The notes beneath the pieces were generated by a model. That model saw nothing but the letters and a program-made list of their open reading frames with translations. It ran no database searches and was not told the origin of the DNA. Shown here piece after piece: positions 8,579 through 27,074 of a stretch of DNA of 64,000 nt. The position numbers were made by a program, and so were the translations under genes. The DNA lies in the IMG/VR virus record IMGVR_UViG_3300021963_000034, positions 64,001 to 128,000 of that record; one strand, given 5' to 3'. Numbering within the stretch: the stretch's first letter is position 1; each line of letters opens with the position of its first letter. Source of the DNA: a virus.

Positions 8579-11500
8579 TTGGCTATAAATAAGAATTTTG
8601 TAGTAAAGCACGGGTTAGAAGTAAATACTAATCTTATTCTCGCTAAAGCAGAGACTGGTAGAATTGGTATTGGAACCACAAATCCGTCTTCAAGGTTTAA
8701 CGTATATAATACATCCGAGTCTAAAGTAGTAGTTGAAAGTTTAGAGCAAGAAGCTTCGATTGTAATTGATTCTGGAATTACTTCAACCTCTTATATTGAG
8801 TTCAAGCAAGATGGAACTCTAAAGAGTAATATAACATTCGATTCTGCAAATTCTGATTCTTTAGAAATAAATTCTAGAACAAATAAAAATGTCGTAATCG
8901 CAAGTGGTGGAGGTGAGGTCGGTATTGGGACCACTAATCCATCAGCATTATTTCAAGTAGGTCCTGGACCCTCTTCAGTTGTAATTACGAATTCGAGCGG
9001 TATTGGTTCTGTTGGTATTGGTACAGTAACACCAACGTCTAACTTGCATGTAGTTGGAACTACTTTATTAATTGGCGATACAATCCAAACTTCAGGATCT
9101 GTTGGAATTTCAACTAGAAATCCAATTCAGAGATTTCAAATTGGAACCAGAAATGACTTTGTTCCTGCAGTTTCTGTTGCAGGTTCTATCGGTATTTCGA
9201 CTGATATTATCACTGGTATTGATACCTCAGGTATATTTGTTGGATATGAACTTGTAGGAATAACCACGATCGTTTCTGTTGGAACGACAGTAACTTCTAT
9301 AGGTTCTGGAACTGTAGGTATTGGAACCACAACTTTAAATACTACATCTTCTTTAAGTGGTGTATCATTTACATTTGGATTTAGAGACGACAGTAAAGTA
9401 TTCGTAGTCACTTCTGATGCTAAGACTGGTATTGGGACCACAAATCCAACATCAAAACTTCATGTTGTAGGAGATACTTTAGTAACTGGAGTATCTACAT
9501 TTGTAGGATTTTCAACCTTTAATAATGATGTATATGTCGCAGGATTATCAACTTTTGCAAGCAATGTACATCTTCTTGATAATAAAAAGTTATATCTTGG
9601 TGATGGTAATGATTTAGAAATTTATCATAGTGGAACTGATAGTTATATTAAAGATGCTGGAACTGGAAATTTAATTATTAATTCAAATAATGTTCAAATT
9701 AAAAATGCTGCTGACAATGAAACTCTTGCCTCCTTCATTGAGAATGGTCAAGTAGAACTTTATTATGATAATTCTAAGAAGTTTGAAACAATTGGTACTG
9801 GTATAACAATAACTGGAGACACTTTTACAAATCAACTAAGTGTTTCTGGGGTATCTACATTTGTTAATGGAACAGTATTCATTGGATCTGGTACTACCAC
9901 TGGCACCGAATTACAAACGCTTCAAGTAACAGGTGGTGTATATGTTTCTGAAAATATCGGTATTGGAACAACCAGGCCAACATCAAAACTTCAGGTCGTA
10001 GGTACTTCTTTAGTAACTGGTATTGCAACTTTCAAAGATAGAGTTATTTTTGATAGTAAAAATTCAATACAAATTCCTGCAGGAACAACTGCAGAAAGAG
10101 ATTCTGTAGGAACTGCAGTAACTGGTCAAATTAGATACAATACTGAATACTCAACTTTTGAAGGATTTGGACCTGGTGGATCTTGGGGATCCTTGGGTGG
10201 TGTAAGAGACGTTGACGGAAACACTTACATTGTCCCAGAAACAGCACCTGGAGCAAACGAAAATACCTTATTCTTTGTTACTGACGGTACTGAAAAAGTT
10301 CAGATAAATCCAGTTGGTAATGTTGGTATTGCTACAACAAATCCAACATCAAAACTTCATGTCGTTGGCAATACCTTAATAACTGGAGTATCTACATTCA
10401 ATGATAACGTTGTAATTGCAGGAGAACTAAGAGGACCTGCAAACTTTATTATTGATCCAGCAGCAGTTGGTGATAACACAGGTGCTGTAAGAATTAGAGG
10501 TGATTTATATGTAGATGGTACTCAATTCCAAGTTAATTCTTCCACGATTGAATTAGCTGATCTAAGAGTTGGTATTGCCACAACAGTAGGAACTAATTTA
10601 TTACTGGATGGTGGTGGTATTGGTATTGGTTCTACTAATATTCTAAAATCATTTACTTACAATTATTCAAGTGATGCTTTAAAATCAAGTGAGAATTTAG
10701 ATTTAGCATCTGGAAAAGTATACAAAATTGATGGTACTGAATTACTATCATCTAATCAAGTAACTGTTCCAAATGCAAATATTTCGGGAGTTTCTACTCT
10801 TTCGAATACTGTAGTTGGTGGTGCCACAACTCAGTTAGTTGTAAATGGTGATACTAGAATTACTGGTATCTTAACAATAGGATCATCGAGTGTCACATTA
10901 AATGGTACAACTAATGCAATTAATGTTGGAACAGGTCTTACTTTGACTAGCAATGGTATCAACGCTACAGGCATTGTAACTGCATCTACTTTCTACGGTA
11001 CTGGTGGATTTTTAACTCTAGGTGCTCCCGATGATGGTGCATTGACTAGTTCGGGAGCACTCAATACTCTTTCAAGTAGTTCAAAAATAGTTAATAGTAT
11101 TGATGATTTGAATGAGCTAGCATTTAATATTATCAGAAACACTGCTGTAACCAATGTCGATTTTTCATCAAATAGTGTTGCCGGAGGATCTCCTCTTTCT
11201 ATTACACTTTCAGTTACCAGTTCTGGAAATGCTAACCGTTATGATGTTGATTGGGGAGATGGAACAACAACATCTGACTATAGTTCGGCATCTATTCCTC
11301 ACACATATACTCAACCAGCAGGTGGGCAGTTCTCAATATCACTGGTTGCCAAGAATAATACTGGAGTAGGTGCAGGTAGTAGTTATTCTACGTCTAAGAG
11401 TAGTTATATTACAGTATATACTCCAAACCCAACAGTTTCCTTTGATCTATACAGAACATCTACTGGAGGTTCTGTACTTTCAGGAAATGATCTATATGTA

Positions 11501-13432
11501 ATTGAAGGTCAATCTTTATACTTAGATAATAACACTTCAAATACAAATGGAGCAACCGTTAATTATACAATGAACTGGGGTGATGGATCAACGAATGATT
11601 CTATTGCAAATAATACTGCTGCTGGCGGCGCAGATGTTTCTGCTTCAAGACTACAACATACTTGGTCGGATGGAACAAATAGTTCTACAAGTAGAGATAC
11701 ACTTACTTTAACCTTAAATGCACATAATACTGCAGACCCTGCTGTTATTCCTGCTAACGGAACTGCATTATTAAAAGTTTATGATGATGCTCCCACTGCA
11801 CCTGATGGATTAAGTAGTAAAACATTATCAAATGTTACCAGCACTGGAACAAGTCCAAGACTTGTTTCTGGATTTACTGATAATACTGGAGGTACTACAT
11901 TATCTGCTGGCAATGATGTCAATCGTATAACTGGAGGAACTGCCGAAGCTACAGCAACTGCTTCATTTGCTTATAATGCAAACAGTGGAACTCTTACAGC
12001 ACAGGTGAACGGGTCCTCTGATGGTTCTAGAGTATTGACTAGTGGAGATGATTCTGGAACTTATACAAGTCTAGTAATCACTGAAGAAAGTGATTATCAG
12101 TTATTGAATTCTTCTGGTTCAACTACTACCTTTGCAGCAAGTATCTATTATCCTGGACTGTATAAAGGATTTAAGGCAAAAGTTTCAAAAGCAGTTTCTG
12201 CACTAAATGTTGGTGTGAATAGTATGAGACTGCTTCATAGTGTTACTGGTAACACAAACGCAGTGCAGTTTGTTAAGGATGATGTAACTTCTACACCTGT
12301 TGTAAGTATTTCAACTGCAACACTTACAGAAAACGTTGCTGGTACTTATCGCTATGTTTCTGGTATTCCTTATTACAACAGTGGTTCTCCATCTCTTACT
12401 TTATCTGGACTGACTGTTACAAACCTTACAGGACAAACATATACTAACCAATCCGATATTGTTGAAGTTGATACTGGTACAAACCAAGAGGGAACTTCCA
12501 GTGCAGCTACAACAGATAGTGATTATACATATTCTCAAATTAACGGTCCTTCAAGTATGTTAAGTGGTGGGATACCCATTGCTAACGTTGGTGTTTCTTC
12601 TCCTTACGCTACCGGAAGTCTGACTGTTCCAATCACATCCTCAAGTGTAAGAACTGTCGATCGAGTAAGAGTACGTGCTAAGAATGTAAATGGAACTAGT
12701 AGCTATACAAGTGATATTTCTACTAATATTCAAGTTCATACTGCAGCGCAGAGTGGAATTAGTGAAATTTCAATAGCAGTTCCTTCTGGACTTGGTGATG
12801 GAACTTATACTGATAATGGAAAGAGAATTTATGATTTTGGCCCTGGAGTTACTACAACAACTCCTTCTTATAATGGAGCAACTAATTTCTATACTAACAA
12901 TCCATATTCTGAATCATCTTCTCCAGCAGGAATTACTACAACAGCAGAAGCAGTTGTTAGATTGGGTGCTATCACTCACAATCAAGTGAATTATTCTGCT
13001 GGATATCTTCCAGTCGGTCCAGATTTTTCATCTGGAAGAAGTGGAACTCAGTATTTTACTTTTGCATTTAGAAGAAGAGTTGTTGCTAACTTTGATATTA
13101 ACATTACAAGTTCAACTGGTGTTGCTGGTGTTTGGATTGCTGCTCCAGGAACAAGCATAGATACTACAAGTGGATTAAATGGTTGGTTAAGAGCAGATAC
13201 TGCTTATGGAGGTTCTGGAGTTCCTGGTAGTGGGCCGGGTGGAAATGGTTCTGATGGATGTGCTTTCACTAATGGAGATAGAATTCTTACATCAACATCT
13301 TTAAGTGGTGGTTATACTATGACATTAGGTAGCGAAAACATGAGTAATGCTACTGGTAATGTTGTTCTTATAAGAATTGCTTTGAACTCAGGGCAATCCG
13401 TAACAAGTCTTAGTATAGGAGTTGCAGCGTAA
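8579..13432 (+). CDS. tail-fibre-like protein with C-terminal PKD-like module
   Basis: TTG start after GGGGAG; repeated [11 protein letters not shown] fibre motifs; YDVDWGDG and MNWGDG PKD-like motifs. Confidence 0.8.
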   Translation: MAINKNFVVKHGLEVNTNLILAKAETGRIGIGTTNPSSRFNVYNTSESKVVVESLEQEASIVIDSGITSTSYIEFKQDGTLKSNITFDSANSDSLEINSRTNKNVVIASGGGEVGIGTTNPSALFQVGPGPSSVVITNSSGIGSVGIGTVTPTSNLHVVGTTLLIGDTIQTSGSVGISTRNPIQRFQIGTRNDFVPAVSVAGSIGISTDIITGIDTSGIFVGYELVGITTIVSVGTTVTSIGSGTVGIGTTTLNTTSSLSGVSFTFGFRDDSKVFVVTSDAKTGIGTTNPTSKLHVVGDTLVTGVSTFVGFSTFNNDVYVAGLSTFASNVHLLDNKKLYLGDGNDLEIYHSGTDSYIKDAGTGNLIINSNNVQIKNAADNETLASFIENGQVELYYDNSKKFETIGTGITITGDTFTNQLSVSGVSTFVNGTVFIGSGTTTGTELQTLQVTGGVYVSENIGIGTTRPTSKLQVVGTSLVTGIATFKDRVIFDSKNSIQIPAGTTAERDSVGTAVTGQIRYNTEYSTFEGFGPGGSWGSLGGVRDVDGNTYIVPETAPGANENTLFFVTDGTEKVQINPVGNVGIATTNPTSKLHVVGNTLITGVSTFNDNVVIAGELRGPANFIIDPAAVGDNTGAVRIRGDLYVDGTQFQVNSSTIELADLRVGIATTVGTNLLLDGGGIGIGSTNILKSFTYNYSSDALKSSENLDLASGKVYKIDGTELLSSNQVTVPNANISGVSTLSNTVVGGATTQLVVNGDTRITGILTIGSSSVTLNGTTNAINVGTGLTLTSNGINATGIVTASTFYGTGGFLTLGAPDDGALTSSGALNTLSSSSKIVNSIDDLNELAFNIIRNTAVTNVDFSSNSVAGGSPLSITLSVTSSGNANRYDVDWGDGTTTSDYSSASIPHTYTQPAGGQFSISLVAKNNTGVGAGSSYSTSKSSYITVYTPNPTVSFDLYRTSTGGSVLSGNDLYVIEGQSLYLDNNTSNTNGATVNYTMNWGDGSTNDSIANNTAAGGADVSASRLQHTWSDGTNSSTSRDTLTLTLNAHNTADPAVIPANGTALLKVYDDAPTAPDGLSSKTLSNVTSTGTSPRLVSGFTDNTGGTTLSAGNDVNRITGGTAEATATASFAYNANSGTLTAQVNGSSDGSRVLTSGDDSGTYTSLVITEESDYQLLNSSGSTTTFAASIYYPGLYKGFKAKVSKAVSALNVGVNSMRLLHSVTGNTNAVQFVKDDVTSTPVVSISTATLTENVAGTYRYVSGIPYYNSGSPSLTLSGLTVTNLTGQTYTNQSDIVEVDTGTNQEGTSSAATTDSDYTYSQINGPSSMLSGGIPIANVGVSSPYATGSLTVPITSSSVRTVDRVRVRAKNVNGTSSYTSDISTNIQVHTAAQSGISEISIAVPSGLGDGTYTDNGKRIYDFGPGVTTTTPSYNGATNFYTNNPYSESSSPAGITTTAEAVVRLGAITHNQVNYSAGYLPVGPDFSSGRSGTQYFTFAFRRRVVANFDINITSSTGVAGVWIAAPGTSIDTTSGLNGWLRADTAYGGSGVPGSGPGGNGSDGCAFTNGDRILTSTSLSGGYTMTLGSENMSNATGNVVLIRIALNSGQSVTSLSIGVAA

Positions 13433-13433
13433 A

Positions 13434-16106
13434 ATGGCTATTTCAAACGATCAGAAGATAGACTATCTCTGGAAAAAAATTGGTTATGGTAGAGCGAAGA
13501 CTGATACTGCAGCGATTAAGGATGCAGTAAACGAATCAATCTCAAGTGCTTTATTGTTGAGAGGTGATAACGTCTGGGCTCAATCAAATTTAATACCAAC
13601 GACTATTCCCGGTAGCAGTACATCAGTAGTTACTTTATATCCAACATCACTACCCGTCGAATGTACTGCAGATACTACTTCTTCCACAAATAGAACTTGG
13701 AAAACAAACATTACCGATTGGATTCCGCCAGAAATTGGTTCTACTTATCTTGTGAAGGTATACGTTCATACATCAGGCAATGCTGCAACTGCTGCTGCAT
13801 CTGGAACTCAATTAGTCGCTGCGGGTTCTGGTAATAATGATGAGTGGTTCTTCGACTATCAATCAGGAACTTTAAACTTTATTGGAACAAACCTTCCAAG
13901 TGGAGTTAATTTTACTGGCAAGAGTGTTTATATTAGTGGTGCAGTTTATAGTGGAATTAAAGGAGTTCCTGCTGTAGGTTCTGCAAATACCTTTACAAAT
14001 TTAGACTTAACCGGAAACTTAAATGTATCTGGAGTTTCCACATTTGCAGGTGGTATTCGAGGTATTGGCATTCAGTCCGGAAGTGTCAATATAGCAACAG
14101 GGATTATTACTGCGTTAAATTTTGTTGGTTCTGGTAATTCCATTTCATATAATGCAGGAACTAAAGTTGTTGATATTAGTATTGGTGGAGGAAATTGGGA
14201 GTATGAAAATCCAACAAATACCTATCAAAGTGATATTTACCGCTTGAATGGAAATGTTGGCATAGGAACCATAGACCCAACATCAAAACTTGATGTTCGC
14301 GGAAATGTCAATGTTTCTGGAATTGTTACCGCTACTGTTTTTGTTGGTGATGGTTCTGGACTGACTGGCATTACTGCATCTGGATCAGGTATTGTTATTA
14401 AAGATTCTGGATCTCTTGTAGGCACTGCAGGCACAATAGATTTTGGCGATAATTTAACAGTTTCTACAATATCTGCTGGAGTAGTTACTGTCACTTCTTC
14501 TGGCGGTGGAGGATCTTCCCAATGGGAGACAACTGCAGCAGGTATTCATACATTATCTAACGTCGGCATAGGAACCACAAATCCAACAGCAAAACTTCAG
14601 GTTAATGGAAATATAAATTTAAATTATGGAAGCTCAACTACAGCGTCATCTATAACTTGGTCCACCAGTGGCACTGCAAATGTTCTTTTAAAAACTTTTG
14701 GAACATCTAACTCTAATACTTCTATGGTATGGAATAGTGGAAATCTTATTTCCAATCCAACATCTACAAATAGTGTATATATTGGTGCATGGGCATCACC
14801 TAATGCATCAGGAACAAGTAATGTTAGCATTGGATCAGGTTGTGGATACTTACTATCAACTGGGGCTAGCAATGTATTTGTTGGTCAGGGTGCAGCATAT
14901 TTTACAACTGGTTCTAATAATACATTTCTCGGTAGTCAATCTGGAGGTGTAGTTACTAGTGGAAGTAATAATACAATATTAGGTGGGTTTAATGGTAATT
15001 CAGGTGGTTTAGATATAAGAACATCTAATAATAATGTTGTAATTGCTGATGGTAGTGGTAATATAAGATTATATGCAAACTCAACTGGAAATATTGGTAT
15101 AGGAACCACAAATCCAACATCAACCTTTACTGTTGTAGGAAACGCTTTAATATCTGGAGTAACAACTTCCGGTGGATATAACGCAACCACAGGAAATGAT
15201 TATAAAATCAATGAAACTTCAGTTCTTAATGCAACAACTCTAGGTTCTGGAGTTGTTAACTCTTCTCTAACTTCTGTTGGAACTCTAACTTCTCTAAATG
15301 TATCTGGAACAACAACAGCAAATTCTTTTGTAAAGACTGGTGGAACTTCAAATCAATTCTTAAAGGCAGATGGTTCAATTGATACTAATACTTATCTAAC
15401 TTCAGCACTACAAAATGTTGTTGAAGATACTACACCACAACTTGGTGGAAATTTAGACCTTAATAGTAAAAATATTACCGGTACTGGTGATGTTAATATT
15501 ACTGGTGTCGTTACTGCTACTTCATTCTCTGGTTCTGGTGCAAATTTAACTTCTCTAGATGCTTCTAATATTTCTTCGGGAATAGTATCAACTGCTAGAC
15601 TGGCATCAGGAACCGCAGATTCAACGACATATTTAAGAGGAGACCAAACTTGGGCAAGTATTAGTGGCGGTGGTGCAACTCTAAGTAATGACACCACAAC
15701 AGACGCATCTTATTATCCAACATTTTCCAGTGCAACTTCCGGAACATATTCAACTGCTTATGTGTCTGATACGAAATGTACTTTCAATCCATCAACAGGC
15801 ACATTATCAGCGACTCAATTTACATCACTATCGGATAAAACTCAAAAGACCAATATTAGACTCATAGATAATTCAATTGAACTTGTGAAACAACTTGAAG
15901 GAGTTCGTTATGATTGGATAAATAATCAAAAACCTTCAATTGGTGTGATTGCACAAGATATTGAAAAAGTACTTCCAGAAGTAGTTGAAACAAATAGTAA
16001 TGGTTTGAAATCAGTCTCTTATGGAAATATAGTTGGTGTATTAATTGAAGCAATTAAAGAACAACAAATTCGCATTGAAGAGTTGGAGAAAAAGTTAAAT
16101 GCCTAA
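13434..16106 (+). CDS. tail fibre with C-terminal peptidase S74 intramolecular chaperone
   Basis: Fibre motifs, adhesin-head-like N-x-x-(I/V/L)G repeats, [46 protein letters not shown]. Confidence 0.85.
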
Positions 16107-17307
16107 TCAATTTAATTCGCCAGAAGGAGATTTAGAGAATTATTTTGTGAGTGAATATTGGTTAATTGACCAGTGGGTTGGTGATACCTTATGGAATTGG
16201 GGTCGTAATACTCAAGGACAAATAGGAGACAATACAGCAACCCAAAGAAACACTCCAGTCACAACACTTGCTGGTGGCGCAAATTGGAAACAAGTTAGTA
16301 CTGGAAGTAATGGTAGTCATACAGTAGCAATAAAAACGGATGGAACTCTATGGAATTGGGGTAATAATTTTAGTGGAGGACTGGGAGTCAATTCACCATC
16401 CAATAGATCCACTCCAGTCACAACATTCGCAGGAGGAACCAACTGGAAACAAGTTGCTAGTGGAGGAGGCCATACAGTAGCAATCAAAACTGATGGAACC
16501 CTATGGACTTGGGGTTCTAATTCTTCTGGACAATTAGGAACCAATGGACCAACAGGTTTGGGAGTAGCAAAAAGCACTCCAGTCACCACATTCGCAGGAG
16601 GAACTAACTGGAAACAAGTAAGTGCAGGAAATCTACATACATTAGCAATCAAAACTGATGGAACCTTATGGACTTGGGGTGATAATTATTATGGACAACT
16701 AGGAGACAATACAACAACCAATAGATGCACTCCAGTCACCACATTCGCAGGAGGAACCAATTGGAAACAAGTTGCTGGTGGAAGAGATCATACAGCAGCA
16801 ATCAAAACCGATGGAACCTTATGGACTTGTGGTCGTAATGCTTATGGAGGTTTAGGAGACAATACAACAACCAATAGATCCACTCCAGTCACCACATTCG
16901 CAGGAGGAACCAATTGGAAACAAGTTGCTGGTGGAGGTTCTTATACAGCAGCAATCAAAACTGATGGAACCTTATGGACTTGGGGTCTTACTTCTGCTGG
17001 TCAACTAGGAATCAATAGATCAGGTTTTGGAATAGCAATAACCACTCCAGTCACAACATTCGCTGGAGGAACCAACTGGAAACAAGTTGCTGGTGGAAAC
17101 GGTCATATAGCAGCAATCAAGACTGATGGAACCTTATGGACTTGGGGAAGTAATTTTGCTGGACAACTAGGAAACAATACAACAACCACTAGTTCCACTC
17201 CAGTTACAACATTCGCAGGAGGAACCAACTGGAAACAAGTTTCTGGTGGATATGGACATACAGTAGCAGTCACATCAGGAACAGATCCTACCTTCTTTAT
17301 TTCATAA
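16099..17307 (+). CDS. RCC1/BLIP-II repeat beta-propeller protein 1 (7 repeats)
   Basis: 7 x LWTWG.N..GQLG...[24 protein letters not shown]; start overlaps the fibre stop. Confidence 0.9.
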
Positions 17308-17324
17308 ATATTTAAAAAAGACAT

Positions 17325-17969
17325 ATGTACGCACTCGTTAATGGTCAAGAATTAAGATTAGGACCAATTGCATTCAACTATAGAATGATTAATGATGAAC
17401 TAGAAGAACTTGAAGTTGATTTTAGAGTAAAATCTTCTGATTATCAATCAGTTCCTATTTCGGTTACTGATGATATTAAAATTCTTCCTGCGAGATATGA
17501 TAATCCAGAGTATGACCCAAGATTTGAAGGTCTTTCAAATGTATCTCACGAAATCACTGAAACTGAAGTAATTTTTAGACACGATAAGGGTTTTAAATCA
17601 CTTCAACAAATTAAGGATGAATATAAGGCAGCAGTAAAACCAGAAAGACAAAGAAAAGAAAACACTACAATTTCTCTAACTGTAAAAGATACTGAAATTA
17701 CAGTATCAACAAGTAGAGAAAGTAGAATTGAATTGATGTCTAAACTTCTTGGTAATGAAGGTCCTTATAATTTCAAGTTTGCGAATGGTGTATGGGTAGA
17801 AGTGACTAAAGTAGATCTTCAAACTATTATTGCTGCAATTGATGTAAAAGTTCAAGAAGCATATGATTGGGAACTTGCAAAACTTCAAGAAATTGATGCT
17901 TGTGAAACAAAAGAAGCAGTTTATGAAGTTGAAATTACTCCACCTCCAGCAGAAAATCCTGTAGTCTGA
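17325..17969 (+). CDS. DUF4376-like tail-fibre assembly/accessory protein
   Basis: C-terminal [35 protein letters not shown] pattern; late promoter cataaata at 17303. Confidence 0.6.
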
Positions 17970-17970
17970 T

Positions 17971-19185
17971 ATGCCAAATCCAACCACTAATTTTAAAGAT
18001 GATTATGGTACTGATTTAGGTAATAAATTAATTACCAAAGAATATTTGATGACTGTTTATCCGCAGATTGGTAATCAATTAATCACTCCGGAATTGTGGG
18101 TTTGGGGGCTTAATTCTTATGGACAACTAGGAGACAATACAACATCCAATAGACGCACTCCAGTCACAACACTGGCAGGAGGGTCCAACTGGAAACAAGT
18201 TTCTGGTGGTGGTAATTATATAGCAGCAATCAAAACCGATGGAACTCTATGGACTTGGGGTCGTAATAATCAAGGACAACTAGGAGACAATACAACAACC
18301 AATAGATCCACTCCAGTCACCACATTCGCTGGAGGATCCAATTGGAAACAAGTTGGTGGTGGAAGTTTTCATACAACAGCAATCAAAACCGATGGAACCC
18401 TATGGACTTGGGGTTTTAATTATTATGGACAACTAGGAGACAATACAACAACCAATAGATCCACTCCAGTCACCACATTCGCGGGAGGATCCAATTGGAA
18501 ACAAGTTTCTGGTTCTTTTCAAGGTAATATTACAGCAGCAATCAAAACTGATGGAACTCTATGGACTTGGGGTCGTAATAATCAAGGACAACTAGGAGAC
18601 AATACAACAACCAATAGATCCACTCCAGTCACCACATTCGCTGGAGGATCCAATTGGAAACAAGTTTCTTGTGGAGGTTATTTCATATCAGCAATCAAAA
18701 CAGATGGAACCCTATGGACTTGGGGTTTTAATTCTTCTGGACAACTAGGAGACAATACAACAACCACTAGATCCACTCCAGTCACAACATTCGCTGGAGG
18801 ATCCAATTGGAAACAAGTTTCTGGTGCATCTAGTCATACAGCAGCAATCAAAACTGATGGAACTCTATGGATTTGGGGTGCTGGTACTACTGGACGACTA
18901 GGAAACAATACAACAACCACTAGTTCCACTCCAGTTACAACATTCGCAGGAGGAACCAACTGGAAACAAGTTTTTGCTGGAGTAAATAATACAGTAGCAA
19001 TCAAAACAGATGGAACCTTATGGACTTGGGGTTCTAATTCTTATGGACAAGTAGGAACCAATAATACAACCACTAGTTCCATTCCAGTCACAACATTCGC
19101 AGGAGGAACCAACTGGAAACAAGTTGCTGGTGGTGGTAATCATATAACAGCAATCAAAACCTCTGACGATTTACAAGGAATCTAA
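17971..19185 (+). CDS. RCC1/BLIP-II repeat beta-propeller protein 2 (7 repeats)
   Basis: Same repeat scaffold, distinct ~40 aa N-terminus. Confidence 0.9.
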
Positions 19186-19209
19186 ATACTTTCAAATACA
19201 ATATTCTAT

Positions 19210-20559
19210 ATGAATCCACTTGAATTGGTTGCAAAGACCTTATATTCATTCAAAGAACAGCAACTAACTTTTGAATTACTTGATGCCTTTGGAAAACAAG
19301 CACAAGTATTTTCACAGTATGATGAAATTGCAAAGATATTTTTTGAACTTAAAAACTTCTCCAAAGCAATTGAATATGGAGAAAAATCTCTTAAACTAGC
19401 ACAAACAAAAGAGGAAAAATATACCACCTCTATGAATTTGATTAATGCTTATAATCAATCAAATCATCCAGAGAAGTCTATTACTCAAATTGAAAAGTGC
19501 AAAAAGATTAATCCGCAAGATACTGAACTTCTTCTGGAAGAAACCTTTGCATATTCTGCACTCAATCAAAAAGAGAAATCAGAAAAACTTCTCTTCAATC
19601 TTCTTCAAAGAAAACTACCAGAAGAGATTGAACGAAAAGCATATCATAATCTATCCGGACATTATTTCCGTAAGGATGATATTCATACAGGACTTCAACA
19701 CTTTCTCAAAGCAGGAGAAGTAGAAGCATATAAAAATCAAAAGCATCCTGATTTTGAGAAGTGGGATGGAACAATTACACCAGGAAGAACTGTAATTATT
19801 GATAATCAATGTGGTGCTGGTGATGAAGTCATTCATATTCGGTTTATGAAACACCTCAAAGACTTGGGAATGAAACCAATTTGGAGTTCTACTCGTAGAG
19901 AACTTGTAGAACTCTTCAAACATAATGGTTATGATGCCGTTTGTATTTGGGACAAACCAGAGTTTCCAAAAGATGCCTGTTGGGTTTATGGTCTTGCACT
20001 TCCTTATTATCTCAATCTCGAATTGAAAGATATTGGAAGAGAACCATATCTCCAAACACTCCCAGAGTATGATAAGAAGTGGGAATGGATGAAAGAAGAT
20101 ACTGGACATAAAGTTGGTATATTCTGGGCATCCAGTTCTGGTTTTGAACAGAACTCTTTCCGTTCGGTGGAACTCAAAGATTATATGAGTGTTCTTGGAA
20201 ACAAAGGATATTCTCTGTATTCACTTCAAACTCATACTGATAACAAAGATGCAAATGATTATCCAGAAATCAAACAATCACTATCAGTTCCTAATAGAGA
20301 GTTTGCTGATACATTCTCAATCATTAAGAACCTGGATTTGGTGGTGACTTCTTGTAGTTTTGTCGCTCACGTTGCAGCATCATTAGGTAAAGAAGTTTGT
20401 GTCTTTGTTCCAATTATGGAATATTATGTTTGGACTTCTTCTACTGGAAAGTGTATGTGGTATGGAGATAACGTTCATCTCTTCCGCCAAAAGAAACCAA
20501 GAACTTGGGATGCACCCATCAAAGAGTTTTGGGAGTTTATGAATGATAGAAGAGTATAA
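19210..20559 (+). CDS. TPR + GT-B (GT9-like) glycosyltransferase
   Basis: Helical TPR-like N-half; WDG..QCGAGDEVIHIRF, VGIFWAS, FADTFSIIKNLDLVVTSCSFVAHVAASLGK, WYG..HLFRQ. Confidence 0.8.
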   Translation: MNPLELVAKTLYSFKEQQLTFELLDAFGKQAQVFSQYDEIAKIFFELKNFSKAIEYGEKSLKLAQTKEEKYTTSMNLINAYNQSNHPEKSITQIEKCKKINPQDTELLLEETFAYSALNQKEKSEKLLFNLLQRKLPEEIERKAYHNLSGHYFRKDDIHTGLQHFLKAGEVEAYKNQKHPDFEKWDGTITPGRTVIIDNQCGAGDEVIHIRFMKHLKDLGMKPIWSSTRRELVELFKHNGYDAVCIWDKPEFPKDACWVYGLALPYYLNLELKDIGREPYLQTLPEYDKKWEWMKEDTGHKVGIFWASSSGFEQNSFRSVELKDYMSVLGNKGYSLYSLQTHTDNKDANDYPEIKQSLSVPNREFADTFSIIKNLDLVVTSCSFVAHVAASLGKEVCVFVPIMEYYVWTSSTGKCMWYGDNVHLFRQKKPRTWDAPIKEFWEFMNDRRV

Positions 20560-21001
20560 TTTATCCTTTCTCAACCTCAATTCCATCAAGAACAAACTAC
20601 TACAAATACAAACTGCTTCTCACGGACTTGTAACAAAAGGTGTTTCCACCTATAATCACGGAATGCCTACTTTGATGTATCCAGAACTGACTGGATTAAA
20701 AAATATTTTCAAACAATATGTTAGAATATATTGTAGAAAGTATGAGATTCCACCTTTAAAGTTTATCAATAGTTGGTTTAATATTTCACAACCAGGAAAT
20801 AAACTCAAAGCACATAAGCACGAAGAAAGTGTTGTGAGTGGAGCATTTTATATTTCTGGTGCAACTCCACTTATCTTTCCAGATACATCAATCAAACCAT
20901 ATCCTGGTTTGTTAGTCATCTTTTCAAGTGATTTAGTTCATTACACAGAAGAAGAAACAGAAGAAAGAATTATTATTAGTTTTAATACAGACTACCTATG
21001 A
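20543..21001 (+). CDS. putative 2OG-Fe(II) oxygenase (TIGR02466-like)
   Basis: SWFNI..AHKH..VSGAFYI..LVIFSSDLVH..RIIISFN. Confidence 0.78.
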   Translation: MIEEYNLSFLNLNSIKNKLLQIQTASHGLVTKGVSTYNHGMPTLMYPELTGLKNIFKQYVRIYCRKYEIPPLKFINSWFNISQPGNKLKAHKHEESVVSGAFYISGATPLIFPDTSIKPYPGLLVIFSSDLVHYTEEETEERIIISFNTDYL

Positions 21002-21681
21002 GATTTCATACTTTTTATACCAAAAATCTTTCAGAACAACTGATAGAAGACCATAAGAAAGTCTGTAATCATATTGGCATTGATGTGACTTATCATATTC
21101 AAGATGCAATAGATGATTATGATACTCTTTATACCGCTCACGGAAAGTTTATGACTTCTGTAATGGAGCAGGAAGAGGTTGCTTGTTTTCTTGATATTGA
21201 TTGTCTTCCGCATAATAAAGAACTTCTGGAAAGAGCATACAACTGGGCAATAGAAAATAAATCTTTTGTCGGAAATGCTCAAAACATTTCTCATACGCAA
21301 ATGAGAAATCATATCTATGCTGCTGCTTCTTGTTTAATTGTAACGAAAGATGCCTGGAATACTTTGGGTAATCCAGACTTTTCCTGGTTTATGCAGAATG
21401 AAGTTCAAATAGATACTGCACAACTTCTCACATTAAGAGCAGACCAAATTGGAATGCCCTATCAATTAATGTATCCTGTTGGTTATGATGGTCCAGAAGA
21501 ATATAAACTTTCTGGATATGGAATATATGGAACAGGAACTTTATACCCAGCAACTTGGCATTATTTTAGAATCAGTAAGTTCAAGGATCAAATACCAGAC
21601 CTTTGGACAACTCGTGTAAATAATATATTAGAAGGTCAAAAGATTATTCCAAATTATTCATCGTGTTTTTATGAACTATAA
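20998..21681 (+). CDS. putative GT-A-like glycosyltransferase
   Basis: CFLDIDCLP DxD motif; gene context. Confidence 0.55.
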   Translation: MRFHTFYTKNLSEQLIEDHKKVCNHIGIDVTYHIQDAIDDYDTLYTAHGKFMTSVMEQEEVACFLDIDCLPHNKELLERAYNWAIENKSFVGNAQNISHTQMRNHIYAAASCLIVTKDAWNTLGNPDFSWFMQNEVQIDTAQLLTLRADQIGMPYQLMYPVGYDGPEEYKLSGYGIYGTGTLYPATWHYFRISKFKDQIPDLWTTRVNNILEGQKIIPNYSSCFYEL

Positions 21682-22438
21682 GTTTTTGTTTTTAGTTGGG
21701 TCTGCAATTAATCATTTTAAAGAGGATGATTTGAGTGCTTTTAAAGCAGAAGAAAGATTTCAACAGACATTAGATACTATTCAGTCAATTAAGAATAAAG
21801 TTCCAGATGCTTATATTTTAATCTACGAAGGCTCTGAAACTCCTATCAAAGATGAGTATAAAGATATTCTGAGACAGAAATCTGATTTGTTTATTCAGTG
21901 TGGTAGTGACCCTTATATGAAATCTTTGTATGAGAACATTCACAAAGACCCACCAAAGTTCACATTTGTAAAATCTATGCTTGAGTGTAGATGTTTACAG
22001 ATTGTTCTGAATCATATGAGACAGCACAATATCTTTAATGATGTCACAAGAGTGTTTAAGTTGACTGGTCGGTATACTCTTAATGATAACTTTGACATCA
22101 ATGACTACAAGAGTAAATTCTTAATCAATAAGTATGTGATGAAATATTATGACTACAAAGAAAGATTTGAGGAGATGGATGATATCTATGTTTCTCTCTT
22201 TGGATGTAAAGGAACAACCGTAACTGGATTGTGGTCCTTTGACCGATTCTTATTCAATGATATTTTTAATGTTCTTCAGAAGAGTTTTGAATATATGGAA
22301 AGAGCAATTCAGTTAACTTGTGGTATGGACATTGAACATTCTTTCTATCACTTTATCAAGAGAGATGATATCATAAATGTTCCTATTCTTGGTGTTGATG
22401 TAGTTAAAGGTATGGATGGAGACAGATTTTCATTATGA
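21671..22438 (+). CDS. hypothetical protein, glycan-modification associated
   Basis: ERFQQTLDTIQSI..VFKLTGRY..DIEH; coupled within the cluster. Confidence 0.5.
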   Translation: MNYKFLFLVGSAINHFKEDDLSAFKAEERFQQTLDTIQSIKNKVPDAYILIYEGSETPIKDEYKDILRQKSDLFIQCGSDPYMKSLYENIHKDPPKFTFVKSMLECRCLQIVLNHMRQHNIFNDVTRVFKLTGRYTLNDNFDINDYKSKFLINKYVMKYYDYKERFEEMDDIYVSLFGCKGTTVTGLWSFDRFLFNDIFNVLQKSFEYMERAIQLTCGMDIEHSFYHFIKRDDIINVPILGVDVVKGMDGDRFSL

Positions 22439-23091
22439 AACTCGCAATCTTTTATCATACTTTTCAAAATGAAATATCTGCTTTCATTTATCAACAACAA
22501 ATCAATCGTCTTTATGTGACTGGATTAATGAATGCTGTTGATTATATGCATATTGGTGTAAATGGAAATAACGAGTTATTCAATGTTCCATCTAAAGCAA
22601 AAGTTGTATACAATCAAAATCAAAAAGAAGAAACAGAAACATTGATTGCATTAAAAGATTTTGCATACGAAAATCCAGATTATAAAATTTTATATTTTCA
22701 CACTAAAGGTGCAAGTAAGGGAACTTTGATTGCAAATGCTTGGAGATTGATGATGGAGTATTTTGTAATTGATAAGTGGAAAGAGTGTGTGGAAATGTTG
22801 GATGAATATGATTGTGTTGGTTCAAATCTAAATCCCGTGGGAGAAACTTTATGGAGTGATGGCACAACAACTATACCAGTAGAAGGAACTTATAATTTTA
22901 CTGGAAATTTCTGGTGGGCAACTGCGAAACACATTCAATCATTAGATCATAAATTTTTGACAAGTGATTATCGTATAGATAGAGAACTATGGATTGGAAG
23001 TAATCCAAACTCAAATCCCGGAACCATTTATCAACCGGGAGTATATGAGTCCTATGAACATTTCTACATGGAGGAAGATTATGTTTCGTAA
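22435..23091 (+). CDS. hypothetical protein, glycosyltransferase-associated domain
   Basis: ILYFHTKG..WRLMMEYF..YDCVG..GNFWWA..ELWIG. Confidence 0.5.
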   Translation: MKLAIFYHTFQNEISAFIYQQQINRLYVTGLMNAVDYMHIGVNGNNELFNVPSKAKVVYNQNQKEETETLIALKDFAYENPDYKILYFHTKGASKGTLIANAWRLMMEYFVIDKWKECVEMLDEYDCVGSNLNPVGETLWSDGTTTIPVEGTYNFTGNFWWATAKHIQSLDHKFLTSDYRIDRELWIGSNPNSNPGTIYQPGVYESYEHFYMEEDYVS

Positions 23092-23452
23092 TTGTGGAGA
23101 ATGTACTGCTTGTTGCACTTGGTTACAAGGTTCTGCTTATGGATATGAGTTTGGTGGTGGAAAGTCTTGTAAGTTTTTATGTGAGACTGGGTGTAGTGTT
23201 CATAAGGCAAGACCAAAATTATGTGAGGGATATTTTTGTGCTTGGGCTCAAGAACTCATAACAGAAGAAATGAGACCTGATAAATGTGGTGTTCTTGTTT
23301 CTGTTGAAAATAATGAGAACGGACAATATCTCAAATTGGTTTCTACTCAAGAAGAAATAAATAAAGATATATTAGAATATTTTAGAAATTGGAGTAGTAT
23401 AATGAATACTCCTGTGATTTATTCAAACAATAATTCCTGGGAAGTCCTCTAA
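23081..23452 (+). CDS. YkgJ-like CxxCxxCC metal-binding protein
   Basis: CGECTACC..CKFL..GCSVHKARPKLC..YFCAW; GGAGG upstream of ATG 23081. Confidence 0.75.
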   Translation: MFRNCGECTACCTWLQGSAYGYEFGGGKSCKFLCETGCSVHKARPKLCEGYFCAWAQELITEEMRPDKCGVLVSVENNENGQYLKLVSTQEEINKDILEYFRNWSSIMNTPVIYSNNNSWEVL

Positions 23453-24627
23453 TGCCTACTTTTTACAATTACACAGAGAATGGTGCAGTATATTCTTTTG
23501 ATGATGTCTTTGTTCCTGCTGATGCTTTTAGGCAGGGGAACTTATGGACTTGGGGTAATAATTCTTCTGGACGACTAGGAGACAATACAGCACCCAATAG
23601 ATCCACTCCAGTCACAACACTTGCTGGCGGAGCAAACTGGAAACAAGTTTTTGCTGGAGTAAATAATACAGTAGCAATCAAAACAGATGGAACCCTATGG
23701 ACTTGGGGTTATAATATTGGTGGACAACTAGGAGACAATACAACAACTGATAGATCCACTCCAGTCACCACATTCGCAGGAGGAACTAACTGGAAACAAG
23801 TAAGTGCAGGAAATCTACATACATTAGCAATCAAAACTGATGGAACCTTATGGACTTGGGGGAGTAATGCTTATGGACAACTAGGAGACAATACATCAAC
23901 CAATAGATCCACTCCAGTCACTACATTCGCAGGAGGAACCAACTGGAAACAAGTTGCTTGTGGTCAAATTCATACAGCAGCAATTAAAACCGATGGAACC
24001 TTATGGACTTGGGGTCGTAATCTTAGTGGGCAAGTAGGAGACAATACAACAACCAGTAGATTCACTCCAGTCACCACATTCGCAGGAGGAACTAACTGGA
24101 AACAAGTAAGTGCAGGAAGTCTACATACATTAGCAATCAAAACTGATGGAACCTTATGGACTTGGGGTCGTAATAATAGTGGACAACTAGGAGACAATGC
24201 AGCAACTGATAGATCCACTCCAGTAACAACATTCGCTGGAGGAAATAATTGGAAACAAGTTGCTTTTAGTGCTAATGGATATCATACTGCAGCAATTAAA
24301 ACCGATGGAACCTTATGGACTTGGGGTCGTAATCTTAGTGGACAACTAGGAGACAATGCAGCAACTGATAGATCCACTCCAGTAACAACATTCGCAGGAG
24401 GAACTAACTGGAAACAAGTTGCTAGTGCTGGCAATTATACAGCAGCAGTCAAAACTGATGGAACCTTATGGACTTGGGGTCGTAATAGTAGTGGACAACT
24501 AGGAGACAATACAACAACCAATAGATCCACTCCAGTAACAACATTCGCAGGAGGAAATAATTGGAAACAAGTTGCTAGTGGATATTCTCATACAGCAGCA
24601 ACAACCTACATAGATGATTATCAGTAA
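23452..24627 (+). CDS. RCC1/BLIP-II repeat beta-propeller protein 3 (7 repeats)
   Basis: Same repeat scaffold, third distinct N-terminus. Confidence 0.9.
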   Translation: MPTFYNYTENGAVYSFDDVFVPADAFRQGNLWTWGNNSSGRLGDNTAPNRSTPVTTLAGGANWKQVFAGVNNTVAIKTDGTLWTWGYNIGGQLGDNTTTDRSTPVTTFAGGTNWKQVSAGNLHTLAIKTDGTLWTWGSNAYGQLGDNTSTNRSTPVTTFAGGTNWKQVACGQIHTAAIKTDGTLWTWGRNLSGQVGDNTTTSRFTPVTTFAGGTNWKQVSAGSLHTLAIKTDGTLWTWGRNNSGQLGDNAATDRSTPVTTFAGGNNWKQVAFSANGYHTAAIKTDGTLWTWGRNLSGQLGDNAATDRSTPVTTFAGGTNWKQVASAGNYTAAVKTDGTLWTWGRNSSGQLGDNTTTNRSTPVTTFAGGNNWKQVASGYSHTAATTYIDDYQ

Positions 24628-24644
24628 AACATTATTTCTTAATT

Positions 24645-25427
24645 ATGAAAACATTATTTTTCCTTTCTGGTCTTCCAAGATCAGGTTCTACTTTACTTGG
24701 ATCAATTCTTTCACAACATCCAAAACTCCAAGCAACTCCAACATCACCACTTGCCGATTTGCTCTGTTGGATTGATGAGGGTTTTTCAAAGATAGACTTA
24801 CAATATACTTACGATAAACAACAGATACAATACAATACATATAATTCAATACTTGAAAACTTCTACAATCACATAGAGAAACCTTGCATTCTTGATAAGC
24901 ATCGTGGTTGGTGTAAGAATGTATCTTCTATTGAAAAGTTTCTCAAACAGAAACCAAAAATCATTGCAACAAACAGAAGAATAAGTGAAGTTCTTGCTTC
25001 TTATATTCTACTCATTCAAAGAAATAATGAAGCAGATAATTTTGTAGATGCACATTTGAGAAGAGAGGGAAAGCTCATTACCACAGATAATCGTATTGAG
25101 TGTTTATGGAAGAATTATGTTTGCGATCCTTATGAGAGTTTGGTTTATGGTTTGACTAATTATAGGGACAATATTCATCTTGTAGATTATAATAATCTTA
25201 CACAAGACCCAGAACAAGAACTTAAAAAGATTTATGAGTTTCTAGAAATAGAAAATCATTCACACGATTTTTCTAATATCTTTAATACTTGTGCCGAAGA
25301 AAAGGACCACGAATGGGGTATTGATAATCTTCATCAAATTCGCACCAAACTTCAAAGAACTTCACCACCACCAGAAGAAGTGATTGGTGAAGAAAATGTA
25401 AAACTTTATGATAAATTTAATCTATGA
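24645..25427 (+). CDS. sulfotransferase family protein
   Basis: SGLPRSGSTLLGSILSQHP PAPS-binding loop; DKHRGW; VDYNNLTQDPEQELKKIYEFL. Confidence 0.88.
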   Translation: MKTLFFLSGLPRSGSTLLGSILSQHPKLQATPTSPLADLLCWIDEGFSKIDLQYTYDKQQIQYNTYNSILENFYNHIEKPCILDKHRGWCKNVSSIEKFLKQKPKIIATNRRISEVLASYILLIQRNNEADNFVDAHLRREGKLITTDNRIECLWKNYVCDPYESLVYGLTNYRDNIHLVDYNNLTQDPEQELKKIYEFLEIENHSHDFSNIFNTCAEEKDHEWGIDNLHQIRTKLQRTSPPPEEVIGEENVKLYDKFNL

Positions 25428-26110
25428 TTGAAGTATTTTTAAGACACTGCTACACATCCAAAGTAAATCTTTCGGGAGCAAATCGTCCAGAGTGGTGGGA
25501 TAAAGAAAAGGTATTTCAAAATTTCAAGAATACCCTCAATCCAGAAACCACTAACTATACAATCATCTTTGATGAGTGTTATGGAAAGCAGAAAGATACA
25601 TTTCTCAAAAATGAGAATGCAGTAACTATTAATTGTGGTAAAGAAAGTGAAAGTTTCTGTAAGACACTGGACCACATTCTTTCACAAGACTTTGATGATG
25701 ATACAATCATTTATTTCCTTGAAGATGATTATGTACATCGTCCAAACTGGGATAGAGCCCTCATAGATGGATTTACTCTACCTGTTCAGTATGTAACCTT
25801 ATATGATCACGGAGATAAGTATCAGGAGATGTATAAGGACTTTATGACGAAAGTTCTTGCAACAAAATATTCTCACTGGATGCCAACTCCATCAACTACA
25901 AATACCTTTGCAATGAAGTTCAAGACACTCAAAGAAGATAAAGAAGTTCATAAACACTTCTCAACTGGTTTTGAACCTTCCGCAGATCACGGTAAATTTT
26001 TAGAACTACATAAGAGAGGAAGAAATTTAATTTCAAGTATTCCTGGTTATTCTACACACGCACATAAAGACTTTTTATCACCTTGTATTGATTGGAGCAC
26101 ATATCTATGA
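25424..26110 (+). CDS. putative GT-A glycosyltransferase
   Basis: IIYFLEDDYVH motif; IPGYSTH; context. Confidence 0.6.
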   Translation: MIEVFLRHCYTSKVNLSGANRPEWWDKEKVFQNFKNTLNPETTNYTIIFDECYGKQKDTFLKNENAVTINCGKESESFCKTLDHILSQDFDDDTIIYFLEDDYVHRPNWDRALIDGFTLPVQYVTLYDHGDKYQEMYKDFMTKVLATKYSHWMPTPSTTNTFAMKFKTLKEDKEVHKHFSTGFEPSADHGKFLELHKRGRNLISSIPGYSTHAHKDFLSPCIDWSTYL

Positions 26111-27072
26111 GAGTAACACTATATGCTATTGCAAAGAACGAAGAAAAGAATATTAAAAAATTTCTTAAAAACTCAAAGAAGTTTGACGATGTAGTTGTAG
26201 TTGATACTGGAAGCACAGACAACACCGTTCAACTACTCAAAGATGCTGGCATTAAAGTCTATGAGCATCCACAAACAAGAGAAGAGTTTGATTTTTCAGT
26301 AGCACGAAATCAGGCACTTTCTTATGTAGAAACTGATTGGGCTTTTGCACTTGACTTTAATGAAGATGTAGATGAGTTTTATCCAGAAGGATTTGGTGTA
26401 ATTGCGGATGAGTTCACTACTTTTAATCATTTGAGATTTGATGATAATGGAAAGGATGAACCAGTCCAATCAAATGAGGTTCACACAAGGTTTCATAGGA
26501 CAAAGAATTATACTTGGATCAATGCAGTTCACGAAGTTCCAAACTTTGTTCCAACAGAAGAATATTTAAATCCATCAAGTGTAGATACAACGATTAAGAT
26601 TACTAAAAAAATTCATAAGACCATAGACAAAGAACTTTTTTACTTCTCAATTTGTGAAAGAGAACACAAGAAAGATCCATCCAACTGGTATTGGATTTGG
26701 TTTATTTTCAATCATTATTTTAATGTGAATAATACAGAGAAAGCACTTGAATATGGTCAAGAATTTTTGAATGTTTCTAAACCATATTTTGATAGTTTTA
26801 GAATCATTGCTTTTATTCGTTGCAGTCAAATTCTACTTTCTATCGGAGATACTCAAAGAGGAATGAATTATGCTTTCCATGCATTGAGTGAAGCAATGAA
26901 TATGGGAGGACATCATTTAACCCAAGCCTTTAGTTATTTCTTTGAACTTTCTAAAATGATGAATAATTCAGATTTAATTGTTTTTGCAACTGCATTCAAT
27001 CCAGAAACTTTAACATCTGAAGAAAGAATAAAAGCAATTAAAAATTTATATAATAATATTGAAAGGGATTGA
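26107..27072 (+). CDS. GT2 glycosyltransferase with TPR-like C-terminus
   Basis: YAIAKNEEKNI..VVVVDTGSTDNT..FDFSVARNQAL..ALDFNE..W..AVHE. Confidence 0.85.
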   Translation: MRVTLYAIAKNEEKNIKKFLKNSKKFDDVVVVDTGSTDNTVQLLKDAGIKVYEHPQTREEFDFSVARNQALSYVETDWAFALDFNEDVDEFYPEGFGVIADEFTTFNHLRFDDNGKDEPVQSNEVHTRFHRTKNYTWINAVHEVPNFVPTEEYLNPSSVDTTIKITKKIHKTIDKELFYFSICEREHKKDPSNWYWIWFIFNHYFNVNNTEKALEYGQEFLNVSKPYFDSFRIIAFIRCSQILLSIGDTQRGMNYAFHALSEAMNMGGHHLTQAFSYFFELSKMMNNSDLIVFATAFNPETLTSEERIKAIKNLYNNIERD

Positions 27073-27074
27073 AT

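Follow-up and report, generated by a model that had tools for sequence, protein, structure and literature searches.

Hypervariable loops and occasional blade conversion in three RCC1 propeller genes of a freshwater cyanophage tail-fibre locus

The window analysed here is a stretch of 64,000 nucleotides (nt) of the IMG/VR record IMGVR_UViG_3300021963_000034 (positions 64,001-128,000 of a whole viral record of 153.5 kb), and it contains three paralogous genes, called gene 1, gene 2 and gene 3, each of which encodes a protein with a 7-blade RCC1 propeller (Table 1). The phage is a freshwater T4-like cyanophage, whose nearest isolate is Synechococcus phage S-SRM01 (Kyanoviridae, Serangoonvirus; freshwater, Singapore; complete genome of 240.8 kb), with ~82% nucleotide identity. 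S-SRM01 carries equivalents of all three RCC1 genes at conserved places (gp335, gp337 and gp344), and synteny with this isolate, the reading frame and the seven blades are preserved across all three window genes. As judged from the sequences, the dominant signal in these genes is diversifying selection on three loops per blade, and gene conversion between blades is real and occasional, being not the main source of the diversity.

Each of the three genes gives seven repeat matches to PF00415 (E 1e-64 to 1e-75), and the three proteins score 278-336 bits with the RCC1-like domain PF25390, whose cut-off is 150. When they are cut at the LWxWG anchor, they yield 21 blade units of 51-55 amino acids (aa), which are the sole RCC1 repeats within the 153.5-kb record. 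The proteins also match the phrog_4219 profile (E 1.1e-49 for gene 1, 1.1e-63 for gene 2 and 4.2e-51 for gene 3). The RCC1 family is very large in metagenomes, where 7999 of 8000 scored candidates matched, and its usual annotation, "regulator of chromosome condensation", is a mis-annotation; to our knowledge there is no Ran in bacteria, and the label reflects the fold only. The searchable literature gives no description of hypervariability in the phage RCC1 family, and its RCC1-cyanophage matches are mostly strain names of the Roscoff culture collection.

The three paralogue types are recognisable by their conserved N- and C-terminal peptides. The N-termini are unlike among genes 1-3 and conserved between orthologues, up to 100%; compared with the distant locus L024, the N-terminal peptides have 0.66-0.93 identity, with 0.93 for type 3. 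Loci of relatives were found via the DUF4376 protein encoded between genes 1 and 2, which led to 25 IMG/VR loci with the same arrangement as the window. Among the loci cited below, L001 is S-SRM01, L004, L006, L007 and L028 are contigs from four Joint Genome Institute (JGI) samples, and L027 is contig k141_504536 of ENA ERZ27296343, an assembly that is independent of the window's and comes from another sample. Blade units were aligned in two sets, one with 41 units (window and S-SRM01) and the other with 239 units from 12 lineages. An earlier note on this DNA had described three genes with seven RCC1 repeats each and dissimilar N-termini, in a tail-gene locus of a T4-like phage; the profile matches and the cutting of the units, the nearest isolate and the S74 fibre gene upstream agree with this description, to which the conservation of the N-termini between orthologues is added.

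Table 1. Propeller genes, shared blocks and neighbouring genes (window coordinates)
Feature	Position	Strand	Remarks
Gene 1 (type 1)	16099-17307	+	402 aa; conserved 30-aa N-terminal peptide, then 7-blade RCC1 propeller
Gene 2 (type 2)	17971-19185	+	404 aa; 41-aa N-terminal peptide, then 7-blade RCC1 propeller
Gene 3 (type 3)	23452-24627	+	391 aa; 30-aa N-terminal peptide, then 7-blade RCC1 propeller
105-nt exact block	16575-16679 (gene 1, blade 3 into blade 4) = 23757-23861 (gene 3)	+	gene 1 recipient
77-nt exact block	18897-18973 (gene 2 blade 6) = 17166-17242 (gene 1 blade 7)	+	gene 2 probable recipient
60-nt exact block	18958-19017 (gene 2 blade 6) = 23635-23694 (gene 3 blade 1)	+	gene 2 recipient
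117-nt exact intragenic block, gene 2	18238-18354 (blade 2) = 18550-18666 (blade 4)	+	
60-nt intragenic tract, gene 3	24336-24395 (blade 6) from 24177-24236 (blade 5)	+	
Tail-fibre protein gene	13422-16106	+	Peptidase_S74 intramolecular chaperone domain at aa 804-855 (C-terminal); many tail-fibre PHROG matches
DUF4376 protein gene	17325-17969	+	between type 1 and type 2 propeller genes, also in related loci examined

Fold and variable loops are best described on gene 3, for which an AlphaFold2 model predicts a closed 7-blade propeller of 7 x 4 strands (predicted local distance difference test score, pLDDT, of 87.8; predicted template modelling score, pTM, of 0.86), with low confidence for the first 30 residues and with the first LWxWG strand preceding blade 1. 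In Foldseek, the model matches UVR8, the RCC1-like domains (RLDs) of HERC1 and HERC2, RCC1, RPGR and BLIP-II with template modelling (TM) scores of 0.80-0.88 and 21-31% identity, the scores for UVR8 being 0.82-0.88. The strands of each blade are LWxWG, TPVTTF, WKQVxx and HTAAIK. The scaffold is almost invariant in both the 41 and the 239 units, and variation is limited to unit column 3, loop A (columns 6-9), loop B (14-21) and loop C (37-44). Loops A and B occupy the first connection, which is the strand D-to-A connection, while loop C is the third, the strand B-C hairpin, and aligns with the GWRHT hairpin that lies on the interaction face of UVR8; the second and fourth connections are formed by the conserved turns AGGTN and KTDGT. 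Successive connections of an antiparallel meander switch between opposite faces, so the hypervariable loops would all lie on one face and the conserved turns on the other. Strand topology and the UVR8 alignment thus place all 21 loops of a propeller on one predicted face, and the variable residues appear neither scattered nor buried. In other phages, positional orthologues have loops that are 36-47% identical and scaffolds that are 85-94% identical, values equal to those of random blade pairs within the window.

The loops of the 210 window blade pairs have a non-synonymous rate (dN) of 0.506 and a synonymous rate (dS) of 0.155, which corresponds to an omega of 3.3 (column bootstrap 95% range 1.8-8.9), against 0.056, 0.375 and 0.15, respectively, for the scaffold. 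Between gene 3 and its closest relative, omega is 1.55 in loops and 0.32 in the scaffold. Locus L004 has two type 3 genes, the second of which is a close orthologue of gene 3, with blades 91-100% identical, and lies inside a block of ~94% identity that reaches downstream, the upstream DNA being merely 81% identical. The two orthologues have 35 differences in the propeller, clustered on loop codons, and their codon differences are 6 synonymous to 15 non-synonymous, compared with 48 to 15 in the adjacent sulfotransferase gene. The near-identical contig groups L004/6/7, L003/5/8/9/23, L010-15 and L020-22 have 0-3 substitutions over the aligned stretch, too few to reveal hot spots.

The fixed third base in variable columns is that of the consensus codon (T, C or A), and descent from one ancestral codon with selection on positions 1 and 2 explains most of these fixed bases. 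Rare position-specific codons are retained in most blades of many lineages (239 blades, L001-L026, with all 21 blades of the window), such as GTC for Val-24, CTA for Leu-12 and AAC for Asn-32, whose genome-wide frequencies are 8%, 12% and 20%, and also ATC for Ile-46.

Blocks of 105, 77 and 60 nt that are shared between different genes, which the earlier note had reported, are exact and maximal, since no extension is possible on either side, and they contain hypervariable loop codons that are otherwise unique to single blades. They were evaluated in a GENECONV-style test on the 21 aligned blades, in which the order of the 87 polymorphic sites was permuted 2000 times. The runs of concordant sites are 50 for gene 1 blade 3 with gene 3 blade 2, 39 for gene 2 blade 6 with gene 3 blade 1 and 33 for gene 1 blade 7 with gene 2 blade 6, each with p<=0.0005. 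The clustering of the variable sites makes the test somewhat liberal, with 47 pairs at p<=0.05 where 10.5 are expected. The 77- and 60-nt blocks overlap by 16 nt inside gene 2 blade 6 (18865-19017), and for this reason the blade is a mosaic, with one block shared with gene 1 and one with gene 3, as had been proposed for the 3' part of gene 2. Inter-gene blocks are also found in other lineages, with 120 nt in L016, 71 nt in L019 and 59 nt in L011.

The direction of the transfers can be read from L004. In L004, the 105- and 60-nt blocks have a 100% match at the orthologous blades of the gene-3 orthologue and are missing from the type 1 and type 2 genes; because this outgroup has the blocks only in its gene-3 orthologue, gene 3 is the donor, and gene 1 blade 3 and gene 2 blade 6 are the recipients. 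The only other metagenome contig with the loop of the 60-nt block has it in a gene-3-type blade 1. For the 77-nt block, gene 1 is the probable donor to gene 2, and the direction comes from the loss of a marker alone: blades 1-5 of gene 2 have a gene-specific Ser codon (GGSNWKQV), which blades 6-7 lack. Within gene 3, the patch 24357-24387 has 13 differences from the L004 orthologue, including a 3-nt indel, and matches blade 5 of gene 3, which indicates a conversion from blade 5 to blade 6 in the window lineage after its split from the L004 orthologue. Two patches of L004 equal blade 7 of L004 itself. These comparisons point to gene conversion between blades of different genes that is recent and directional, from gene 3 into genes 1 and 2.

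Independent copies of these sequences are found for part of the tracts. L027 is 100% identical to the window over ~14720-17400, which covers all of gene 1 including the imported 105-nt block, and the donor sequences of gene 3 recur in the contigs of the four JGI samples. The proteins of genes 2 and 3 had no exact match in look-ups, the loops on either side of gene 2 blade 6 were not found in a scan of metagenomes, and a scan for the FAGVNNTVA cassette gave the L004 lineage again and no other.

Sharing of whole loops is rare in comparison with the number of loops. In the window, only 2 of 210 blade pairs have loop C DNA in common, namely the two events already described, and in each of eleven other lineages 0-1 pairs do. 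Among the 239 blades, the number of different sequences is 224 for loop C, 203 for loop B and 194 for loop A. Of the 8 cases of a C loop that is identical between lineages, 6 keep the gene and the position, and the remaining two are again the window's two events. Two contigs that are 99.2% identical have essentially identical blades. The claim of the earlier note that gene conversion shuffles blades therefore divides: the conversion is real, recent and directional, as far as these comparisons reach, but with 2 of 210 pairs the shuffling of resident cassettes does not stand as the source of the repertoire.

Over longer times the positions of the blades lose their identity. The blade tree is star-like without usable topology, and clustering by gene type appears only for the last blades, so units do not group strictly by gene or by blade position. 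Synonymous identity between the window and S-SRM01 blades is 0.793 at orthologous positions and 0.795 all-against-all, an equality which implies that the positional orthology of blades has been erased. Within the window, synonymous identity of the blades is 0.81, against 0.78-0.79 to S-SRM01 and L004, and the value for flanking genes is 0.72; given 0.81 against 0.78-0.79, a strong genome-specific homogenisation was rejected. At the clade level, Gly of column 5 is GGT in 59 of 74 near-clade blades and GGA in 76 of 103 next-clade blades, and the same contrast is seen for Phe-27 (TTC in the near clade and TTT in the next) and Thr-51 (ACC and ACT). Such clade-specific synonymous variants are on most blades of all three genes, and concerted evolution is visible at this level only, not as a within-genome excess.

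Comparison of orthologous loci shows that blade order and number are not fixed across relatives, with 3, 6, 7 and 14 blades among orthologues. The type 1 gp335 of S-SRM01 (L001:6570-7604) has 6 blades, the type 1 gene of L019 (L019:9417-9986) has 3, and L002:11367-12428 has one blade fewer than L003:16185-17396, to which it is 99.2% identical. These variants can reflect either unequal recombination or collapsed assemblies; all three retain intact N- and C-termini, and a 3-blade protein could not close a 7-blade ring alone. In the distant loci, L024:16228-18522 and L026:2384-4783 and 9090-12059 are 14-blade double propellers of type 2 and type 3 genes, one of which has a 210-aa N-terminal extension. 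L027 matches the window through the end of the fibre gene and gene 1, and then differs by ~20% of DNA in gene 2; its gene 2 allele (L027:4787-6442; 551 aa) differs from gene 2 of the window in every loop and has, in loop B of blade 5, a Ser/Thr-rich insertion of ~150 aa without a Pfam match, which on the propeller model sits on the variable face. N-terminal peptides are swapped between otherwise near-identical genes in the pairs window/L004 and L003/L002. In the type 1 propellers L020:8621-9958 and L024:8630-9955, a poly-Pro/Gly tail (PPPPPPPGGGGDDN) replaces the usual C-terminus.

The neighbourhood of the propeller genes has the character of a tail-fibre cluster. The start of gene 1 overlaps the stop of the S74 fibre gene by 8 nt, and gene 1, the S74 fibre gene and further tail-fibre-like genes form one unbroken same-strand run. 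Two large fibre-like proteins have a near-identical N-terminal stretch of ~45 aa in common (13434-13570 and 32029-32170), which suggests alternative fibres on one attachment site. The DUF4376 protein is conserved, not hypervariable, and has a weak match to phrog_10508, "tail fiber protein"; its AlphaFold2 model (pLDDT 77) has no Foldseek match in the PDB at E<=0.001, and a wide VIA structure search gave merely generic helical-hairpin matches, with Z below 7 and no functional clue. Tetratricopeptide repeat (TPR), 2OG-Fe(II) oxygenase, sulfotransferase and glycosyltransferase genes are downstream in the locus, and the last three kinds belong to the same gene run (19210-27944). Loop B of most blades (16189-24618) is usually D-N-T-T-T-N-R-S, that is, two N-x-S/T sequons per blade, and with the adjoining enzyme genes these sequons mean that the propellers could be substrates for modification.

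A small Cys-rich open reading frame with a CGECTACC motif and an uncertain start codon (22994-23452) ends exactly at the start of gene 3, and the counterpart position of S-SRM01 holds the 369-nt gene gp343. Promoter and terminator scans, including the T4 late-promoter motif TATAAATA, gave nothing above chance within the region. An imperfect 10-bp hairpin is present at blade junctions (DGTLWTWG and the first loop codon) at 16494-16519, 18393-18418, 18705-18730 and 19011-19036; it was picked up by the terminator scan and is probably a by-product of the coding sequence, and a role of these hairpins in recombination would be speculation.

The origin of the loop diversity can be explained in several ways. 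The strong form of the earlier note's proposal, a combinatorial binding repertoire that arises mainly by conversion between the 21 blade cassettes of the locus, is quite unlikely, and this part of it is not upheld. The loop-carrying tracts exist and are statistically supported, gene 2 blade 6 and gene 1 blade 3 are new loop combinations, and L016, L019 and L011 have inter-gene blocks alike; yet loop C is rarely common to two blades, here or in the other eleven lineages, almost every one of the 239 blades has its own, loops have dN far above dS, identical C loops mostly keep their gene and position between lineages, most of the patches in which gene 3 and its L004 orthologue differ are without a resident donor, and the 99.2%-identical contigs share essentially identical blades. 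It is very improbable that faulty assembly of a repetitive region created the shared blocks as chimeras, although the record is a contig of an uncultivated virus, with repeats of 153 nt that are 80-90% alike, and although the gene 2 mosaic has no independent copy, which makes an artefact conceivable for that blade alone. Gene 1 with its 105-nt block is reproduced at 100% by L027, the donor gene-3 sequences occur in four JGI samples, and the frame, the seven blades and the synteny with S-SRM01 are intact; moreover, the independent contig has a k of 141 in its name, which exceeds the length of every block (60-117 nt), so the assembler of L027 would have had to span them with reads.

A targeted hypermutation system that writes the loop codons, similar to a diversity-generating retroelement (DGR) or of an unknown kind, is scarcely credible. 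In its favour, T is the third base of 75% of the codons at the eight most variable columns and of 25% of those in the scaffold, 93% of the residues at these columns are encodable by NNT codons, and the loop synonymous rate is below that of the scaffold. A DGR was rejected, as reverse transcriptase, template repeat and adenine specificity are all lacking: PF00078 has no match in six frames of the 153.5-kb record and of the complete S-SRM01 genome, although control genomes matched, and scaffold adenines are invariant over the units (AAA 41/41, ACA 41/41, GGA 41/41, CAA 40/41), which is incompatible with adenine mutagenesis of a templated tract. The fixed third base also follows the consensus codon, be it T, C or A. 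It is decidedly unlikely that the blade DNA is itself an evolved diversification device free of reverse transcriptase, in which codons would be kept for homology and loops as stop-proof NNT codons. If this were true, a phage population could keep reshuffling and mutating the 63 loops of its three propeller adhesins, in a viral parallel to the repeats with high internal conservation of the NOD-like receptor (NLR) immune receptors. With regard to function, propellers that act inside the cell, by binding for example targets of host defence or takeover with loops that co-evolve with host proteins, or as substrates or partners of modification enzymes, with an incidental place in the fibre locus, are an unlikely alternative that retains some weight. 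Eukaryotic RCC1-like domains bind proteins inside cells, and the locus has the oxygenase, sulfotransferase, glycosyltransferase and TPR genes; the overlap of gene 1 with the fibre stop in a same-strand run of tail-fibre-like genes, the RCC1 paralogue sets among virion proteins of phages W70 and GAP32 (PMC11370258, PMC5259590), RCC1 domains fused to tail-fibre N-terminal domains, and a conserved N-terminus before a hypervariable part, as is usual in phage receptor-binding proteins, argue against it.

The explanation that is considered probable is that the propellers are a rapidly evolving host-binding part of the fibre module, in which selection and exchange between phages are the main sources of diversity and blade conversion is occasional. 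The three genes encode single-domain 7-blade RCC1 propellers, which would belong to the tail-fibre module, the type-specific conserved N-terminal peptide would dock each protein onto a phage partner, and the loop-bearing face would be the ligand-binding face for variable host surface structures. Diversity would come chiefly from diversifying selection on loop codons and from co-circulating phages trading whole propellers or N-terminal modules. The scaffold DNA that the blades have in common would also open them to ordinary homologous recombination, and in-register conversion tracts of ~60-120 nt occasionally carry loops to another blade or gene, here from gene 3 to gene 1, from gene 3 and probably gene 1 to gene 2, and from blade 5 to blade 6 of gene 3. 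Unequal exchange would alter blade number, and the spread of clade-specific synonymous variants over most blades would amount to concerted evolution.

Host binding on the virion is the most likely function by analogy, and location in the virion, N-terminal docking and receptor binding are suggested by several lines of evidence. Type-conserved N-terminal peptides precede a hypervariable domain, gene 1 overlaps the fibre stop, and all three genes are on the same strand in the tail-fibre cluster. Phage receptor-binding proteins usually have a conserved N-terminus and, distal to it, a hypervariable domain. The adhesin gp38 is an example of this layout (PMC3157838). RCC1 proteins were detected by mass spectrometry in the virions of W70 and GAP32, both with sets of RCC1 paralogues (PMC11370258, PMC5259590), and in Pseudomonas phages RCC1 propellers are fused to tail-fibre proteins, including tail-fibre N-terminal domains.

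Several points weigh against this explanation. Virion placement and binding are argued only from context and analogy, and the placement of the loops on one face comes from strand topology and the UVR8 alignment, not from coordinates. The paper on S-SRM01 does not mention its RCC1 genes gp335, gp337 and gp344. The mosaic blade of gene 2 is known from a single metagenomic record, with no independent copy found. Several multi-nucleotide loop patches between gene 3 and L004, such as 24055-24063, where two codons differ by six bases, match no donor in the two loci and may come from point mutation or from import from unseen phages. The low synonymous rate of the loops (0.155 versus 0.375 in the scaffold) and the excess of codons ending in T at the eight most variable columns are accounted for mostly but not wholly by descent from one ancestral codon.

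Among known systems, the WD40 repeats of the NWD/HNWD proteins (het-d, het-e and het-r) of Podospora anserina, which undergo repeat exchange within and between loci and positive selection (PMC1805685, PMC2873952), are similar in their evolution. In both systems, beta-propeller repeats that are highly alike in DNA move within a locus and between paralogous loci, diversifying selection acts on residues of the interaction face (here a face deduced from topology), and repeat number is variable. The phage proteins differ from NWD proteins in having RCC1 and not WD40 repeats, in the lack of any detected NACHT/STAND N-terminal domain, in their phage carrier and in the absence of repeat-induced point mutation (RIP), and they have three long variable loops per blade, compared with four residues per repeat in Podospora, and also exchange between genomes. 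The system thus works like an NWD-type repeat family but is not a member of it, since only RCC1-type domains were found.

The T-even distal fibre locus and its gp38 adhesins were reportedly the subject of Tetart et al. in 1996 and 1998. In T-even gp38, recombination in or near conserved motifs that separate hypervariable segments makes chimeric adhesins (PMC3157838). Like gp38, the propellers are found in a T4-type phage and have an N-terminal attachment part and conserved motifs between hypervariable segments, but the three proteins have no PF05268 match and no sequence or fold relation to gp38, so that the resemblance is one of organisation only: here there is a 7-blade propeller in three paralogues with 21 units, as a putative adhesin with putative fibre attachment. 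The RCC1-like virion proteins of large myoviruses, W70_237-239 (phrog_4219) and GAP32 gp001, with arrays in 121Q and PBECO4 (PMC11370258, PMC5259590), are also tandem or multi-copy single-propeller paralogues of myoviruses with a phrog_4219 match, but they are annotated as DNA-condensation proteins, neither loop hypervariability nor blade conversion is described for them, and identity to them is low.

UVR8, the RLDs of HERC1 and HERC2, RCC1, RPGR and BLIP-II share the 7-blade fold, with loop C corresponding to the GWRHT hairpin of UVR8, but there is no sign of guanine nucleotide exchange factor, photoreceptor or beta-lactamase-inhibitor function as in RCC1, UVR8 and BLIP-II, and the internal repeat identity is extreme here, unlike in those proteins. 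Targets of DGRs resemble the propellers in variable codons that avoid stops, in the fixed third base and in the phage tail locus, while reverse transcriptase, template repeat and adenine specificity are missing here, where recombination and selection are at work. All these comparisons fit a known regime of repeat evolution in a new setting, namely the RCC1 fold, a phage and three paralogues, and not a new diversity machine.

Concerted evolution together with diversifying selection, which is known from the WD40 repeats of fungal NLRs, would with these genes be extended to a new carrier, a phage, and to another fold, that of RCC1. A scaffold of such regularity could also be used as a framework for binders, and the isolate S-SRM01, which has the same three genes, makes the idea directly testable. 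If the propellers are host-binding, each virion type would have up to 63 fast-evolving loops on three interchangeable scaffolds, and the swaps of blades, propellers and N-termini would be a visible record of host-range evolution in freshwater cyanophages.

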